Shown piece by piece: positions 203 to 6,703 of a stretch of 6,703 nucleotides of DNA. The stretch lies in the IMG/VR virus record IMGVR_UViG_2534682252_000011; one strand, written 5' to 3'. A model generated the notes under the pieces. It had not been told where the DNA came from. It made no database searches and saw only the letters and a list, made by a program, of their open reading frames with translations. The DNA is from a virus (Duplodnaviria; Heunggongvirae; Uroviricota; Caudoviricetes). Each line of letters starts with the position of its first letter. The first letter of the stretch is position 1. The position numbers were made by a program, and so were the translations under genes.

Positions 203-429
203 CCTTAATAAAGCATCTGTAACTGGTTGTTGTTCTGCGGGTTCTGTTCTTCGTTGACATGAGGTTGCCCCGTATTCAGTGTCGCTGATTTGTATTGTCT
301 GAAGTTGTTTTTACGTTAAGTTGATGCAGATCAATTAATACGATACCTGCGTCATAATTAATTATTTGACGTGGTTTGATGGCGTAGATGCACGTTGTGA
401 CATGTAGATGATAATTATTATCATTTTGC

Positions 430-436
430 GGGTCCT
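430..436. other. cosQ: cosQ-like element (gggtcct) about 24-30 bp upstream of the cosN nick
   Basis: Position relative to the genome right end (459) matches where I recall lambda cosQ to lie. The exact cosQ boundaries are from memory. Confidence 0.4.
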
Positions 437-459
437 TTCCGGCGATCCGACAGGTTACG

Positions 460-471
460 GGGCGGCGACCT
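460..471. other. cosN: cosN: 12-nt cohesive-end sequence gggcggcgacct; right genome end ...cgatccgacaggttacg ends at 459
   Basis: Exact match to the canonical lambda cohesive end GGGCGGCGACCT, preceded by the canonical right-end sequence. Nu1 starts about 190 bp downstream, as in lambda. Confidence 0.85.
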
Positions 472-504
472 CGCGGTTTTTCACTATTTATGAAAATTTT
501 CCGG

Positions 505-625
505 TTTAAGGCGTTTCCGTTCTTCTTCGCCGTAACCTAATGTTTTTATTTAAAACACCCCCTGAAAAGAAAGGAAACGACAGGTGCTGAAAACGGGCTT
601 TTTGGCCTCTGTCGTTTCCTTTCTC
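505..625. promoter_or_regulatory. cosB: cosB: terminase small-subunit binding region with R3 (cgtttcc 512-518), an A/T-rich tract at the expected IHF site I1 (536-558), R2 (ggaaacg 573-579, inverted) and R1 (cgtttcc 613-619)
   Basis: Three copies of the cgtttcc / ggaaacg core in the R3-I1-R2-R1 order and orientation known for lambda, between cosN and the Nu1 start. I could not identify a clean IHF consensus by eye. Confidence 0.65.
568..624. repeat. 16-bp perfect inverted repeat (568-583 / 609-624) with a 25-bp spacer; the arms correspond to R2 and R1
   Basis: 568-583 agaaaggaaacgacag is the exact reverse complement of 609-624 ctgtcgtttcctttct. Confidence 0.8.
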
Positions 626-648
626 TGTTTTTGTCCGTGGAATGAACA

Positions 649-1194
649 ATGGAAGTCAACAAAAAGCAGCTGGCTGACATTTTCGGCGCGAGTATCCGTA
701 CCATTCAGAACTGGCAGGAGCAGGGAATGCCCGTTCTGCGGGGTGGTGGCAAGGGTAATGAGGTACTTTATGACTCTGCCGCCGCCATAAAATGGTATGC
801 CGAAAGGGATGCTGAAATTGAGAACGAAAAGCTGCGCCGGGAAGTTGAAGAACTGAGGCAGGACAGCGAGACAGATCTCCAGCCAGGGACTATTGAGTAC
901 GAACGCCATCGACTTACGCGTGCGCAGGCCGACGCACAGGAACTGAAGAATGCCAGAGACTCAGCTGAAGTGGTGGAAACCGCATTCTGTACTTTCGTGC
1001 TGTCGCGGATCGCAGGTGAAATTGCCAGTATTCTCGACGGGATCCCCCTGTCGGTGCAGCGGCGTTTTCCGGAACTGGAAAACCGACATGTTGATTTCCT
1101 GAAACGGGATATCATCAAAGCCATGAACAAAGCAGCCGCGCTGGATGAACTGATACCGGGGTTGCTGAGTGAATATATCGAACAGTCAGGTTAA
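649..1194 (+). CDS. Nu1: Terminase small subunit gpNu1 (181 aa), intact
   Basis: 181-aa ORF beginning MEVNKKQLADIFGASIRTIQNWQEQGMPV, an N-terminal helix-turn-helix, with the LRGGGKGNEV segment. Near-identical to lambda gpNu1 as recalled. Sits immediately downstream of cosB and overlaps the A start by 26 nt. Confidence 0.95.
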   Translation: MEVNKKQLADIFGASIRTIQNWQEQGMPVLRGGGKGNEVLYDSAAAIKWYAERDAEIENEKLRREVEELRQDSETDLQPGTIEYERHRLTRAQADAQELKNARDSAEVVETAFCTFVLSRIAGEIASILDGIPLSVQRRFPELENRHVDFLKRDIIKAMNKAAALDELIPGLLSEYIEQSG

Positions 1195-2896
1195 CAGGCT
1201 GCGGCATTTTGTCCGCGCCGGGCTTCGCTCACTGTTCAGGCCGGAGCCACAGACCGCCGTTGAATGGGCGGATGCCAGTTACTATCTCCCGAAAGAATCC
1301 GCATACCAGGAAGGGCGCTGGGAAACACTGCCCTTTCAGCGGGCCATCATGAATGCGATGGGCAGTGACTACATCCGCGAGGTGAATGTGGTGAAGTCTG
1401 CCCGTGTTGGTTATTCCAAAATGCTGCTGGGTGTTTATGCCTACTTCATAGAGCATAAGCAGCGCAACACCCTTATCTGGTTGCCGACGGATGGTGATGC
1501 CGAGAACTTTATGAAAACCCACGTTGAGCCGACTATTCGTGATATTCCGTCGCTGCTGGCGCTGGCCCCGTGGTATGGCAAAAAGCACCGGGATAACACG
1601 CTCACCATGAAGCGTTTCACCAATGGGCGTGGCTTCTGGTGCCTGGGCGGTAAAGCGGCAAAAAACTACCGTGAAAAGTCAGTGGATGTGGCGGGTTATG
1701 ATGAACTTGCTGCCTTTGATGAGGATATTGAACAGGAAGGCTCTCCGACGTTCCTGGGCGATAAGCGTATTGAAGGCTCGGTCTGGCCAAAGTCCATCCG
1801 TGGCTCCACGCCCAAAGTGAGAGGCACCTGCCAGATTGAGCGTGCAGCCAGTGAATCCCCGCATTTTATGCGTTTTCATGTTGCCTGCCCGCACTGCGGG
1901 GAGGAGCAGTACCTTAAATTTGGCGACAAAGAGACGCCGTTTGGCCTCAAATGGACGCCGGATGATCCCTCCAGCGTGTTTTATCTCTGCGAGCATAATG
2001 CCTGCGTCATCCGTCAGCAGGAGCTGGACTTTACTGATGCCCGTTATATCTGCGAAAAGACCGGGATCTGGACCCGTGATGGCATTCTCTGGTTTTCGTC
2101 ATCCGGTGAAGAGATTGAACCGCCTGACAGTGTGACCTTTCACATCTGGACGGCGTACAGCCCGTTCACCACCTGGGTTCAGATTGTCAAAGACTGGATG
2201 AAGACGAAAGGGGATACGGGAAAACGTAAAACCTTCGTGAACACCACGCTCGGTGAGACATGGGAAGCGAAGATCGGCGAACGTCCGGATGCTGAAGTGA
2301 TGGCAGAGCGGAAAGAGCATTATTCAGCGTCCGTTCCTGACCGTGTGGCTTACCTGACCGCCGGTATCGACTCCCAGCTGGATCGCTACGAAATGCGCGT
2401 ATGGGGATGGGGGCCGGGTGAGGAAAGCTGGCTGATTGATCGGCAGATTATTATGGGCCGCCACGACGATGAACAGACGCTGCTGCGTGTGGATGAGGCC
2501 ATCAATAAAACCTATACCCGCCGGAATGGTGCAGAAATGTCGGTATCCCGTATCTGCTGGGATACTGGCGGGATTGACCCGACTATTGTGTATGAACGCT
2601 CGAAAAAGCATGGGCTGTTCCGGGTGATCCCCATTAAAGGGGCATCCGTCTACGGAAAGCCGGTGGCCAGCATGCCACGTAAGCGAAACAAAAACGGGGT
2701 TTACCTTACCGAAATCGGTACGGATACCGCGAAAGAGCAGATTTATAACCGCTTCACACTGACGCCGGAAGGGGATGAACCGCTTCCCGGTGCCGTTCAC
2801 TTCCCGAATAACCCGGATATTTTTGATCTGACCGAAGCGCAGCAACTGACTGCTGAAGAGCAGGTCGAAAAATGGGTGGATGGCAGGAAAAAATAA
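1169..2896 (+). CDS. A: Terminase large subunit gpA, reading frame ends prematurely (575 codons, where lambda gpA has 641 as I recall)
   Basis: GTG start at 1169 giving MNISNSQVNRLRHFVRAGL...; contains VVKSARVGYSK. Roughly 99% identical to recalled lambda gpA until ...EKWVDGRKK, then TAA at 2894-2896. Confidence 0.9.
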   Translation: MNISNSQVNRLRHFVRAGLRSLFRPEPQTAVEWADASYYLPKESAYQEGRWETLPFQRAIMNAMGSDYIREVNVVKSARVGYSKMLLGVYAYFIEHKQRNTLIWLPTDGDAENFMKTHVEPTIRDIPSLLALAPWYGKKHRDNTLTMKRFTNGRGFWCLGGKAAKNYREKSVDVAGYDELAAFDEDIEQEGSPTFLGDKRIEGSVWPKSIRGSTPKVRGTCQIERAASESPHFMRFHVACPHCGEEQYLKFGDKETPFGLKWTPDDPSSVFYLCEHNACVIRQQELDFTDARYICEKTGIWTRDGILWFSSSGEEIEPPDSVTFHIWTAYSPFTTWVQIVKDWMKTKGDTGKRKTFVNTTLGETWEAKIGERPDAEVMAERKEHYSASVPDRVAYLTAGIDSQLDRYEMRVWGWGPGEESWLIDRQIIMGRHDDEQTLLRVDEAINKTYTRRNGAEMSVSRICWDTGGIDPTIVYERSKKHGLFRVIPIKGASVYGKPVASMPRKRNKNGVYLTEIGTDTAKEQIYNRFTLTPEGDEPLPGAVHFPNNPDIFDLTEAQQLTAEEQVEKWVDGRKK

Positions 2897-3095
2897 CTGT
2901 GGGACAGCAAAAAGACGACGCAATGAGGCGCTCGACTGCTTCGTTTATGCGCTGGCGGCGCTGCGCATCAGTATTTCCCGCTGGCAGCTGGATCTCAGTG
3001 CACTGCTGGCGAGCCTGCAGGAAGAGGATGGTGCAGCAACCAACAAGAAAACACTGGCAGAATACGCCCGTGCCTTATCCGGAGAGGATGAATGA
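2897..3095 (+). pseudogene. A: Displaced 3' end of A: LWDSKK still in the A frame (2897-2914), then [59 protein letters not shown] in the +1 frame, ending in the ATGA overlap with W
   Basis: Frame-0 ORF 2880..3095 encodes the expected gpA C-terminus and ends exactly at the W start (atg 3092-3094 / tga 3093-3095). Recovering the ancestral protein needs both readthrough of TAA 2894-2896 and a +1 shift near 2915. Confidence 0.7.
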
Positions 3096-4900
3096 CGCGA
3101 CAGGAAGAACTTGCCGCTGCCCGTGCGGCACTGCATGTACCTGATGTACAGGAAAACGGGTGGCAACGGTTACAGAAAGACGGACGGCGAGTGGAGTTTA
3201 CGACCACTTCCGTGTCTGACCTGAAAAAATACATTGCTGAGCTGGAAGTGCAGACCGGCATGACACAGCGACGCAGGGACCTGCAGGATTTTATGTATGA
3301 AAATCGTCCACCATTCCCACCCTTCGTGGGGCCGGACGGCATGACATCGCTGCGTGAATATGCCGGTTATCACGGCGGTGGCAGCGGATTTGGTGGGCAG
3401 TTGCGGGCGTGGAACCCACCGGGTGAAAGTGTGGATGCAGCCCTGCTGCCCAACTTTACCCGTGGCAATGCCCGCGCAGACGATCTGGTACGCAATAACG
3501 GCTATGCCGCCAACGCCATCCAGCTGCATCAGGATCATATCGTCGGGTCTTTTTTCCGGCTCAGTCATCGCCCAAGCTGGCGCTATCTGGGCATCGGGGA
3601 GGAAGAAGCCCGTGCCTTTTCCCGCGAGGTTGAAGCGGCATGGAAAGAGTTTGCCGAAGATGACTGTTGCTGCATTGACGTTGAGCGAAAACGCACGTTT
3701 ACCATGATGATTCGGGAAGGTGTGGCCATGCACGCCTTTAACGGTGAACTGTTCGTTCAGGCCACCTGGGATACCCGTCCCTCGCGACTGTTCCGGACAC
3801 AGTTCCGGATGGTCAGCCCGAAGCGCATCAGCAACCCGAACAATACCAGCGACAGCCGGAACTGCCGTGCCGGTGTGCAGATTAATGACAGCGGTGCGGC
3901 GCTGGGATATTACGTCAGCGAGGACGGGTATCCTGGCTGGATGCCGCAGAAATGGACATGGATACCCCGCGAGTTACCCGGCGGGCGCGCTTCGTTCATT
4001 CACGTCTTTGAACCCGTGGAGGACGGGCAGACCCGCGGTGCAAATGTGTTTTACAGCGTGATGGAGCAGATGAAGATGCTCGACACGCTGCAGAACACGC
4101 AGCTGCAGAGCGCCATTGTGAAGGCGATGTATGCCGCCACCATTGAGAGTGAGCTGGATACGCAGTCAGCGATGGATTTTATTCTGGGCGCGAACAGTCA
4201 GGAGCAGCGGGAAAGGCTGACCGGCTGGATTGGTGAAATTGCCGCGTATTACGCCGCAGCACCGGTCCGTCTGGGAGGCGCAAGAGTGCCGCACCTGATG
4301 CCGGGGGACTCACTGAACCTGCAGACGGCTCAGGACACGGATAACGGCTACTCCGTGTTTGAGCAGTCACTGCTGCGGTATATCGCTGCCGGGCTGGGTG
4401 TCTCGTATGAGCAGCTTTCCCGGAATTACGCCCAGATGAGCTACTCCACGGCACGGGCCAGTGCGAACGAGTCGTGGGCGTACTTTATGGGGCGGCGAAA
4501 ATTCGTCGCATCCCGTCAGGCGAGCCAGATGTTTCTGTGCTGGCTGGAAGAGGCCATCGTTCGCCGCGTGGTGACGTTACCTTCAAAAGCGCGCTTCAGC
4601 TTTCAGGAAGCCCGCAGTGCCTGGGGGAACTGCGACTGGATAGGCTCCGGTCGTATGGCCATCGATGGTCTGAAAGAAGTTCAGGAAGCGGTGATGCTGA
4701 TAGAAGCCGGACTGAGCACCTACGAGAAAGAGTGCGCGAAACGCGGTGACGACTATCAGGAAATTTTTGCCCAGCAGGTCCGTGAAACGATGGAGCGCCG
4801 CGCAGCTGGTCTTAAACCGCCCGCCTGGGCGGCTGCGGCATTTGAATCCGGGCTGCGACAATCAACAGAGGAGGAGAAGAGTGACAGCAGAGCTGCGTAA
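3092..4900 (+). CDS. B: Fused reading frame: head-tail joining protein gpW N-terminus (about 62 aa, no stop) continuous with portal protein gpB; an intact portal could also start at the internal ATG 3293
   Basis: 602-aa ORF starts [15 protein letters not shown]... (gpW), has the SD ggagagg at 3081-3087, and continues without a stop into [23 protein letters not shown]...[10 protein letters not shown] (gpB). The lambda-position W stop tga (3298-3300) and B start atg (3297-3299) are both out of frame here. In-frame ATG at 3293 with agga at 3285-3288 would give a 535-aa portal. Confidence 0.85.
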
Positions 4901-6202
4901 TCTCCCGCATATTGCCAGCATGGCTTTTAATGAGCCGCTGATGCTTGAACCCGCCTATGCGCGGGTTTTCTTTTGTGCGCTTGCAGGCCAGCTTGGGATC
5001 AGCCGCCTGACGGATGCAGTATCCGGCGACAGCCTGACTGCCGGAGAGGCACCCGCGGCGCTGGCGTTATCCGGTGATGATGACGGACCACGACAGGCCC
5101 GGAGTTATCAGGTCATGAACGGCATCGCCGTGCTGCCGGTGTCCGGTACGCTGGTCAGCCGGACGCGGGCGCTGCAGCCGTATTCGGGAATGACCGGTTA
5201 CAACGGCATTATCGCCCGTCTGCAACAGGCTGCCAGCGATCCGATGGTGGACGGCATTCTGCTCGATATGGACACACCGGGCGGGATGGTGGCGGGAGCA
5301 TTTGACTGTGCTGACATCATCGCCCCGTGTGCGAGACATAAAAACCGGTATGGGCGCTGGCCAACGACATGAACTGCAGTGCAGGTCAGCTGCTTGCCAG
5401 CGCCGCCTCCCGGCGTCTGGTCACGCAGACCGCCCGGACAGGCTCCATCGGCGTCATGATGGCTCACAGTAATTACGGTGCTGCCCTGGAGAAACAGGGC
5501 GTGGAAATCACGCTGATTTACAGCGGCAGCCATAAGGTGGATGGCAACCCCTACAGCCATCTACCGGGTGATGTCCGGGAAACACTGCAGTCCCGGATGG
5601 ATGCAACCCGCCGGATGTTTGCGCAGAAGGTGTCGGCATATACCGGCCTGTCCGTGCAGGCTGTGCTGGATACCGAGGCTGCAGTGTACAGCGGTCAGGA
5701 GGCCATTGATGCCGGACTGGCTGATGAACTTGTCAACAGCACCGATGCGATCACCGTTATGCGTGATGCACTGGATGCACGTAAATCCCGTCTCTCAGGA
5801 GGGCGAATGACCAAAGAGACTCAATCAACAACTGTTTCAGCCACTGCTTCGCAGGCTGACGTTACTGGCGTGGTGCCAGCGACGGAGGGCGAAAACGCCA
5901 GCGCGGCGCAGCCGGACGTGAACGCGCAGATCACCGCTGCGGTTGCGGCAGAAAACAGCCGCATTATGGGGATCCTCAACTGTGAGGAGGCTCACGGACG
6001 CGAAGAACAGGCCCGCGTGCTGGCAGAAACCCCCGGTATGACCGTGGAAACGGCCCGCCGCATTCTGGCCGCAGCACCACAGAGTGCACAGGCGCGCAGT
6101 GATACTGCGCTGGATCGTCTGATGCAGGGGGCACCGGCACCGCTGGCTGCAGGTAACCCGGCATCTGATGCCGTTAACGATTTGCTGAACACACCAGTGT
6201 AA
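4881..6202 (+). pseudogene. C: Capsid assembly protease gpC (S49/ClpP-like), split by a net +2 frameshift at about 5323-5344 into ORF pieces 4881..5372 and 5369..6202
   Basis: GTG start 4881 with strong SD gaggagga (4869-4876) and a 20-nt overlap with the B stop, as in lambda. Frame 0 reads ...GAFDCADIIAPCARHKNRYGRWPTT then stops; the gpC continuation PVWALANDMNCSAGQLLASAASRR... is in frame 2. The ORF-track start at 4746 is inside B and is not the real start. Confidence 0.8.
5597..6202 (+). CDS. Nu3: Scaffolding protein gpNu3 (201 aa), nested in-frame in the 3' part of C, intact
   Basis: Internal ATG at 5597 (MDATRRMFAQKVSAYTGL...) sharing the C stop at 6200-6202. Length and position match lambda Nu3. 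It lies downstream of the C frameshift, so it is unaffected. Confidence 0.75.
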   Translation: MDATRRMFAQKVSAYTGLSVQAVLDTEAAVYSGQEAIDAGLADELVNSTDAITVMRDALDARKSRLSGGRMTKETQSTTVSATASQADVTGVVPATEGENASAAQPDVNAQITAAVAAENSRIMGILNCEEAHGREEQARVLAETPGMTVETARRILAAAPQSAQARSDTALDRLMQGAPAPLAAGNPASDAVNDLLNTPV

Positions 6203-6211
6203 GGGATGTTT

Positions 6212-6544
6212 ATGACGAGCAAAGAAACCTTTACCCATTACCAGCCGCTGGGCAACAGTGACCCGGCTCATACCGCAACCGCGCCCGGCGGATTGAGTGC
6301 GAAAGCGCCTGCAATGACCCCGCTGATGCTGGACACCTCCAGCCGTAAGCTGGTTGCGTGGGATGGCACCACCGACGGTGCTGCCGTTGGCATTCTTGCG
6401 GTTGCTGCTGACCAGACCAGCACCACGCTGACGTTCTACAAGTCCGGCACGTTCCGTTATGAGGATGTGCTCTGGCCGGAGGCTGCCAGCGACGAGACGA
6501 AAAAACGGACCGCGTTTGCCGGAACGGCAATCAGCATCGTTTAA
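6212..6544 (+). CDS. D: Head decoration protein gpD (110 aa), intact
   Basis: [27 protein letters not shown]...AISIV, near-identical to recalled lambda gpD. aaggga SD at 6201-6206; starts 9 nt after the C stop, as in lambda. The ORF-track start at 6206 (MFM...) is probably not used. Confidence 0.95.
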
Positions 6545-6561
6545 CCTGACCCTTCATCACT

Positions 6562-6587
6562 AAAGGCCGCCTGTGCGGCTTTTTTTA
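6562..6587 (+). terminator. D-E intergenic hairpin (stem 6566-6570 gccgc / 6575-6579 gcggc, loop ctgt) followed by a run of 7 T; putative attenuator or RNA-stability element
   Basis: Inverted repeat plus T-run read directly from the sequence. Its function is not known to me, and full termination here would be odd because E is needed in amounts similar to D. Confidence 0.3.
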
Positions 6588-6599
6588 CGGGATTTTTTT

Positions 6600-6703
6600 A
6601 TGTCGATGTACACAACCGCCCAACTGCTGGCGGCAAATGAGCAGAAATTTAAGTTTGATCCGCTGTTTCTGCGTCTCTTTTTCCGTGAGAGCTATCCCTT
6701 CAC
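6600..6703 (+). CDS. E: Major capsid protein gpE, 5' partial (first 35 codons; runs off the window end)
   Basis: ATG at 6600 giving MSMYTTAQLLAANEQKFKFDPLFLRLFFRESYPF, matching the lambda gpE N-terminus as recalled. Confidence 0.9.
   Translation, partial: MSMYTTAQLLAANEQKFKFDPLFLRLFFRESYPF

Follow-up and report, generated by a model that had tools for sequence, protein, structure and literature searches.

The window analysed here, a 6,703-nucleotide stretch of DNA held in IMG/VR as virus record IMGVR_UViG_2534682252_000011, carries part of a lambdoid prophage in which several genes for DNA packaging and head assembly are broken by ten small sequence lesions, the origin of which is our subject. 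The window is byte-identical to one complete contig, AMTQ01000039.1 (6,703 bp), of assembly GCA_000302735.1, a 2012 draft genome of Escherichia coli O157:H7 strain PA7. From left to right it reads cos-nu1-A-W-B-C/Nu3-D-start of E, that is, the left arm of a lambda-like phage, and both this order and the protein families encoded (Pfam Phage_Nu1, GpA_ATPase/GpA_nuclease, Phage_portal_2, Peptidase_S49 and HDPD) are those of a lambda-type packaging and head module. The underlying element is the well-known Sp8-type lambdoid prophage module of O157:H7. PA7 itself is a clinical O157:H7 isolate from Pennsylvania (genome AMTQ00000000) that belongs to clade 2.9 and for which no stx allele is listed (PMC4587872 Table S1). 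It is the only strain in that table with an empty stx-allele field and thus appears to be stx-negative, a point that bears on the copy number of the module. We found no mention of the AMTQ accession in the main texts of the literature, and PA7 is named only in a supplementary table (PMC4587872).

All of the genes and lesions described below lie on the plus strand. The terminase small subunit gene nu1 (649–1194) is intact and encodes a protein of 181 amino acids that is identical to that of Sp8 in strain Sakai and matches Phage_Nu1. The gene for the terminase large subunit, A (1169–2896), encodes only 575 of the expected 641 amino acids before ending at a TAA codon at 2894–2896. Beyond it, an artificial open reading frame (ORF) of 602 amino acids (3092–4900) fuses W to B and is found in RefSeq as a 'phage portal protein' (WP_248698537.1). 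The prohead protease gene C, of the S49 family, is in two pieces: an N-terminal fragment (4881–5372; 163 amino acids with a frameshifted tail; EKH02012.1) and a C-terminal fragment (5369–6202; 277 amino acids; EKH02013.1). Within the latter lies an intact nested ORF for the scaffold Nu3, which we take to span 5597–6202 on the basis of the lambda gene map and the ATG at 5597. The head decoration gene D (6212–6544) is intact, whilst the major capsid gene E begins at 6600 and is cut by the end of the contig at 6703. None of the ten lesions falls in nu1, in D or in the nested Nu3 ORF.

The first lesion (2888–2896) affects a run of seven A residues near the 3' end of A: the run is read as A6 and the T-A that follows it as T-AA, giving an apparent TA/AT swap at 2894–2895, and it is this reading of AAAAAAAT-A as AAAAAAT-AA that creates the TAA stop. 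The second, an A inserted between G and C at 2915, outside any homopolymer, moves the remainder of A into an ORF in another frame (2880–3095; 71 amino acids; EKH02010.1). Three T insertions follow in W, at 3138 (ATG^ACC to ATGTACC), at 3147 (ATG^ACA to ATGTACA) and at 3170–3171 (T to TT). Together these add three bases, so that the W frame is regained after 11 scrambled codons, but the W stop codon is then lost. The sixth lesion shortens a G4 run to G3 near the end of W (3276–3278), and two further insertions, of C between T and G at 3305 and of G between C and T at 3326, fall in codons 3 and 10 of B. The net gain from the start of W to codon 10 of B is four bases, which places B in the W frame and generates the 602-residue fusion; read from its own ATG (3297), B meets a stop after 15 codons. 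The last two lesions, C3 to C4 at 5323–5326 (codon 148) and A4 to A5 at 5340–5344 (codon 154), break C at codons 148–154 into its two pieces.

The closest matches to the window are O157:H7 chromosomes, at 99.8% nucleotide identity over 225–6703, for example Sakai Sp8 and the same locus in the re-sequenced EDL933 genome (CP008957), which are identical to each other across the aligned part. Sakai Sp8 has the same gene order, cos-nu1-A-W-B-C/Nu3-D-E. Alignment of the window with it over 225–6703 gives nine single-base indel columns and five substituted columns, of which two are the TA/AT swap at 2894–2895, two (328 and 360) belong to the left end of the contig, where the first 360 bases are of a different type, and one is at 4284. 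From position 505 onwards, the window differs from Sp8 and from EDL933 by nine one-base indels, the swap of adjacent bases and one substitution. When the ten events are undone, the resulting sequence differs from Sp8 at three of 6,472 positions and the Nu1, A, W, C and D proteins become 100% identical to those of Sakai Sp8; B retains one change, K329R. Every lesion coordinate that the first-pass annotation had listed in A, W/B and C corresponds in this alignment to a true difference from the intact allele, although the three T insertions in W (3138, 3147 and 3170) had been missed. The same annotation described the module as about 99% identical to lambda. This holds for the proteins (97.8–99.2%) but not for the nucleotide sequence (97.5%), and the lambda left arm (cos to E), whilst collinear with Sp8, is more distant from the window than Sp8, its true nearest relative.

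The substitution that gives K329R (AAA to AGA at 4284) is the sole private one downstream of cos. An intact portal protein bearing K329R is absent from a collection of about 15 billion proteins, and the change is uninformative as a marker of PA7 relatives. The A-to-G change is present in no other record and may be either a real PA7 single-nucleotide polymorphism (SNP) or a further consensus error.

The spectrum of the lesions is the reverse of that by which copies of this module naturally vary. Sp8 differs from the Stx1 phage and from lambda (both from 505 onwards) by 54 and 138 substitutions, respectively, 192 in total, without a single indel. The corresponding figures for the window are ten indel-type events and one substitution, and its indel-rich spectrum departs from those of the natural pairs with Fisher p values of 1.6e-13 to 2.5e-17. 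Across a 600-bp region covering lesions, 219 independent full-length copies from IMG/VR and metagenomes accumulate 1,651 mismatches and 16 gap positions, and 212 of them are free of gaps altogether. The events are also tightly grouped, eight falling within 433 bp and the other two within 18 bp; in 200,000 random placements, eight of ten events never fell within a span of 450 bp. Neutral decay of a pseudogenised prophage would not be expected to yield either this ratio or these two clusters.

The first-pass annotation had also held that the lesions were confined to homopolymers, as in some sequencing chemistries. This does not stand. Runs of three or more account for only about four of the ten events, the chance expectation being 17% (binomial p = 0.08), or for three of nine if the swap is set aside (p = 0.19), whilst five of the insertions place a base unlike both of its neighbours (G^C gaining A, G^A gaining T twice, T^G gaining C and C^T gaining G) and one merely turns T into TT. 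Run-length error of the kind associated with 454, Ion Torrent or nanopore reads is thus not the pattern seen here. We also examined the 454 flow order TACG, with which all five non-homopolymer insertions are compatible, but such agreement has a chance expectation of 0.125 and we do not count it as evidence. Neither programmed frameshifting nor phase variation at the A7 run was retained as an explanation, since no more than one of the ten events would be accounted for in this way.

The lesions are private to the PA7 contig. The block 2860–3360 finds matches in 3,213 complete E. coli genomes, none of which reaches 99% identity to it; the best (98.4%) shares only the loss from the A7 run. With a 46-base query able to seed only on the lesion-bearing sequence of C, one of 5,426 complete E. 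coli genomes was matched. K-mers for the ten lesions are absent from 240 other IMG/VR and metagenome copies of the module, a result that is not independent for 3138 and 3147 because these copies were chosen for an intact W stretch. The exact lesion patterns have no match in the viral, metagenome and genome collections, whereas the intact allele has at least 120 matches in the viral and in the metagenome collections. At the protein level, the frameshift-specific products of 163 and 71 amino acids are encoded by PA7 alone among the approximately 15 billion proteins. The 602-residue W-B fusion was not found by exact look-up among encoding contigs and is present only as an nr/UniParc record. Neither lesion block therefore recurs in the 5,426 complete genomes, the 240 copies or the protein collection, as it would be expected to do if it marked a genuinely pseudogenised prophage.

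Elsewhere the runs concerned are almost invariant: the G4 run is intact in 218 of 218 independent copies, the C3 run in 152 of 152 and the A4 run in 98 of 98. The A7 run is followed by T-A in 220 of 223 independent copies; the other three have A6-T-A, and the A6-T-AA of the window occurs in none. The one complete genome matched by the C query is that of 2014C-3050 (NZ_CP027472.1, 1,004,510–1,004,854), which shares a single lesion with the window, the A5 run at 5340. Its S49 peptidase gene is annotated as 'frameshifted' and a second change, from G3 to G2, lies 40 bases upstream of the A5 run. The A7 run is a recurrent frameshift site, with A6 in O121 strain RM8352 (annotated as 'frameshifted') and two A residues lost in CP043011.1, and a product of 73 amino acids that matches an A6 allele (MGGWQEKILWDS...) is encoded on 328 contigs, complete genomes included. 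The A6 form may be either a real allele that is inherited or an error that has been made repeatedly.

Two apparent recurrences were considered as independent support for the broken genes and rejected. A 575-residue A product is encoded on 11 contigs, but there the gene is truncated by the contig itself stopping at 2893–2895, and where the sequence continues it is the intact A7-T. Similarly, CP043011.1 and a Logan contig both encode a 277-residue C fragment, yet neither carries the insertions of the window: CP043011.1 is rich in errors, with different indels, and the Logan contig simply begins at that ATG. The contigs of five unrelated short-read E. coli assemblies end at 2893–2895, some 64 bases past the last SNP (2830) between Sp8 and the Stx1 phage. 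The first lesion cluster of the window starts at the same place, and the sequence from 2831 to 3281 is identical in the two prophage copies. It may be at 2893–2895 that unique placement of short reads begins to fail.

Other error-prone or low-coverage assemblies of the module, among them genomes with genes annotated as 'frameshifted', also contain frameshift-type errors. These differ from the errors of the window save for the two homopolymer recurrences (A7 loss and A4 to A5), and the five non-homopolymer insertions of the window are unique to it in this comparison. Copies of the module with several indels come from four human gut metagenome contigs of 1.2–2.3x k-mer coverage. Amongst metagenome contigs whose names state their coverage, and with gaps scored in both lesion regions, the gap-bearing contigs (1.2–2.3x) hold ranks 1, 2, 4 and 6 of 46, lowest first (Mann-Whitney p = 4e-5). 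Pseudogene calls made on low-coverage metagenome contigs should in general be treated with caution. The genome CP043011.1 (5.48 Mb; module at 2,554,950–2,575,783), although described as complete, shows 25 gap openings when aligned across 5.9 kb of the module, with the terminase and portal genes each split into several ORFs, and looks like an unpolished long-read assembly.

The left end of the contig provides independent signs that it is unreliable. The contig ends inside repeated prophage sequence and switches from one prophage type to another near cos. Positions 1–440 are 100% identical to another O157 prophage, in which nu1 is interrupted by ISEc8, and Sp4 is the Sakai prophage with a nu1 gene disrupted by an insertion sequence (PMC2669165). 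Positions 1–360 of the window are of this Sp4 type, the first 224 being absent from Sp8 and positions 328 and 360 carrying Sp4 alleles. From 477 onwards the window has Sp8 alleles (T477, A483) and then sequence found only in Sp8. The switch lies within the 116 bp in between (361–476), which are common to both types in the alignment. Inside this stretch, at 460–471, is the sequence GGGCGGCGACCT, which we take from established knowledge of lambda to be the cohesive-end site cosN. Among the best matches listed from the 5,426 complete genomes, none runs across 224/225 into an Sp8-type module. The join is either chimeric, of a kind that a short-read assembler could make by mistake, or a real Sp4/Sp8 recombinant in PA7.

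What, then, is the origin of the ten lesions? The analysis shows them to be private to a single contig and closely grouped; nearly all are indels, and undoing them recovers the reference proteins exactly. Being restricted to one assembly, local and reversible in this way, they have the properties of a draft-assembly artefact. Very probably, they are a local consensus or assembly artefact of this one contig and not mutations of the bacterium. The errors would then be confined to two short patches of low quality, 2894–3326 and 5323–5344, and the real PA7 chromosome would be expected to carry intact A, W, B and C genes identical or nearly so to those of Sakai Sp8. Candidate technical causes are thin coverage, a gap-fill patch or the inclusion of 454 reads in a hybrid assembly. 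Genomic DNA of the PA strains was sequenced at IGS on the Illumina HiSeq 2000 (PMC4587872), and sister genomes of the project were assembled from Illumina reads with Velvet or from Illumina plus 454 reads with Celera (PMC3593324). A local low-quality consensus or gap-fill patch fits the pattern better than a homopolymer bias running through a whole chemistry. The first-pass annotation had offered artefact and prophage decay as alternatives, leaning towards artefact; the former is now strongly favoured, though without the homopolymer mechanism then proposed for it, as most of the events are not changes in run length. Several points weigh against an artefact. The technical origin of the lesions is something that we infer and did not observe. 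If PA7 was sequenced by Illumina alone, single-base insertions of this kind would be atypical and a fault of the assembler or gap-filler has to be assumed. Restriction to one strain is also expected of very recent real decay, and PA7, with no listed stx allele, has undergone some prophage loss. Finally, the A7-run site taken by itself could be a real variant, given A6 at three of 223 loci and the matching product on 328 contigs.

On a reading of real decay, the ten mutations would be present in the PA7 prophage itself, and this Sp8-type element would be a recently degraded cryptic prophage with an inactive terminase large subunit, portal and prohead protease. The lesions are present in the deposited sequence, O157 prophages are well known for frameshifts and other defects (PMC2669165), the absence of a listed stx allele implies that prophage content has been lost from PA7, and the A7 run is variable elsewhere. 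We nevertheless consider this very improbable: ten indel-type events to one substitution reverses the natural variation of the module (0:192; p about 1e-13 or lower), the events sit in two tight patches, three T insertions within 33 bases that jointly restore the frame are unlike independent neutral hits, and the non-homopolymer lesions occur in no relative, complete genome or metagenome copy. A genuine burst of clustered single-base insertions, arising for example where error-prone repair synthesis filled one or two patches, and destroying terminase, portal and protease together in an stx-negative O157:H7 strain, combined with a real Sp4/Sp8 recombination at cos, strikes us as very improbable. 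Nor is it at all likely that the lesions have a mixed origin, with the run-length changes (A7 to A6, G4 to G3, C3 to C4 and A4 to A5) reflecting real slippage or a heterogeneous population and only the non-homopolymer insertions being artefacts. The occurrence of A6 at three of the 223 independent loci and in RM8352, and of A5 at 5340 in one complete genome, speaks for such a division, yet not one of the 218, 152 and 98 independent copies departs from G4, C3 and A4, respectively, the recurrences come from assemblies with nearby run-length errors and a 'frameshifted' annotation or from contigs of about 2x coverage, and the run-length changes of the window lie inside the same two patches as its non-homopolymer errors.

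Least credible of all is a collapsed repeat, in which reads from an Sp8-type and a Stx1-phage-type copy were merged and both alleles written into the consensus wherever the two differ. O157 genomes do contain two copies of this segment, the contig is short with ends inside repeats, and the T followed by C at 3304–3305, where lambda has C and Sp8 has T, was at first suggestive. Against this, Sp8 and the Stx1 phage differ at 52 sites (55 alignment columns), at every one of which the window agrees with Sp8, none of the ten lesions falls on such a site, and PA7 is listed without stx1. A collapsed two-copy repeat, possibly with a 454 flow-space mechanism, was therefore rejected.

The preferred reading, that the lesions are errors of one draft contig, makes the finding an ordinary one: most likely there is little biology in it and the lesions are not a real feature. 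The first-pass annotation had supposed that the choice between artefact and decay would settle the question of a live temperate phage. For a prophage of the Sp8 type this is wrong. In Sakai, all of the morphogenesis and terminase genes of Sp8 are intact, yet the prophage lacks cI and cro, is non-inducible and shows no excision, circularisation, replication or packaging (PMC2669165). Because Sp8 without cI and cro is neither excised nor packaged in Sakai, the status of the element as a live phage is independent of the lesions. Any importance of the Sp8 head genes would lie in the help that they give to other defective prophages. Were the lesions real, PA7 would merely have one more O157 prophage without head genes that was already non-inducible, and the helper functions on which other defective prophages can draw could become slightly fewer (PMC2669165).

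The result is thus useful as a matter of data hygiene. Neither a defective prophage nor decay of its packaging genes should be deduced from the lesions. The products that they create persist in protein databases, where they can mislead annotation and pseudogene counts; these include the 602-residue W-B 'portal protein' WP_248698537.1, the truncated terminase and the split protease (EKH02009–EKH02013). WP_248698537.1 is an active RefSeq record, whereas the original annotation, EKH02009–EKH02013, divides the region into individual fragments, of which one is called 'gifsy-1 prophage terminase large chain gp2'.

A last observation concerns the Sp4-type sequence at the left end. In NZ_CP022689.1, which carries a locus of this type, a lysis cassette (holin, lysozyme and an Rz-like gene; 5174–8427 of the locus) lies on the strand opposite to nu1 and the terminase genes. 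Positions 1–224 of the window correspond to the sequence adjoining the holin gene there, and CP043011.1 has the same 225 bases inverted, upstream of its holin gene. The opposite orientations in these two genomes imply that a segment is inverted in the Sp4 type, with one of its boundaries at 224/225 of the window, and this inversion junction is found in 294 complete genomes.

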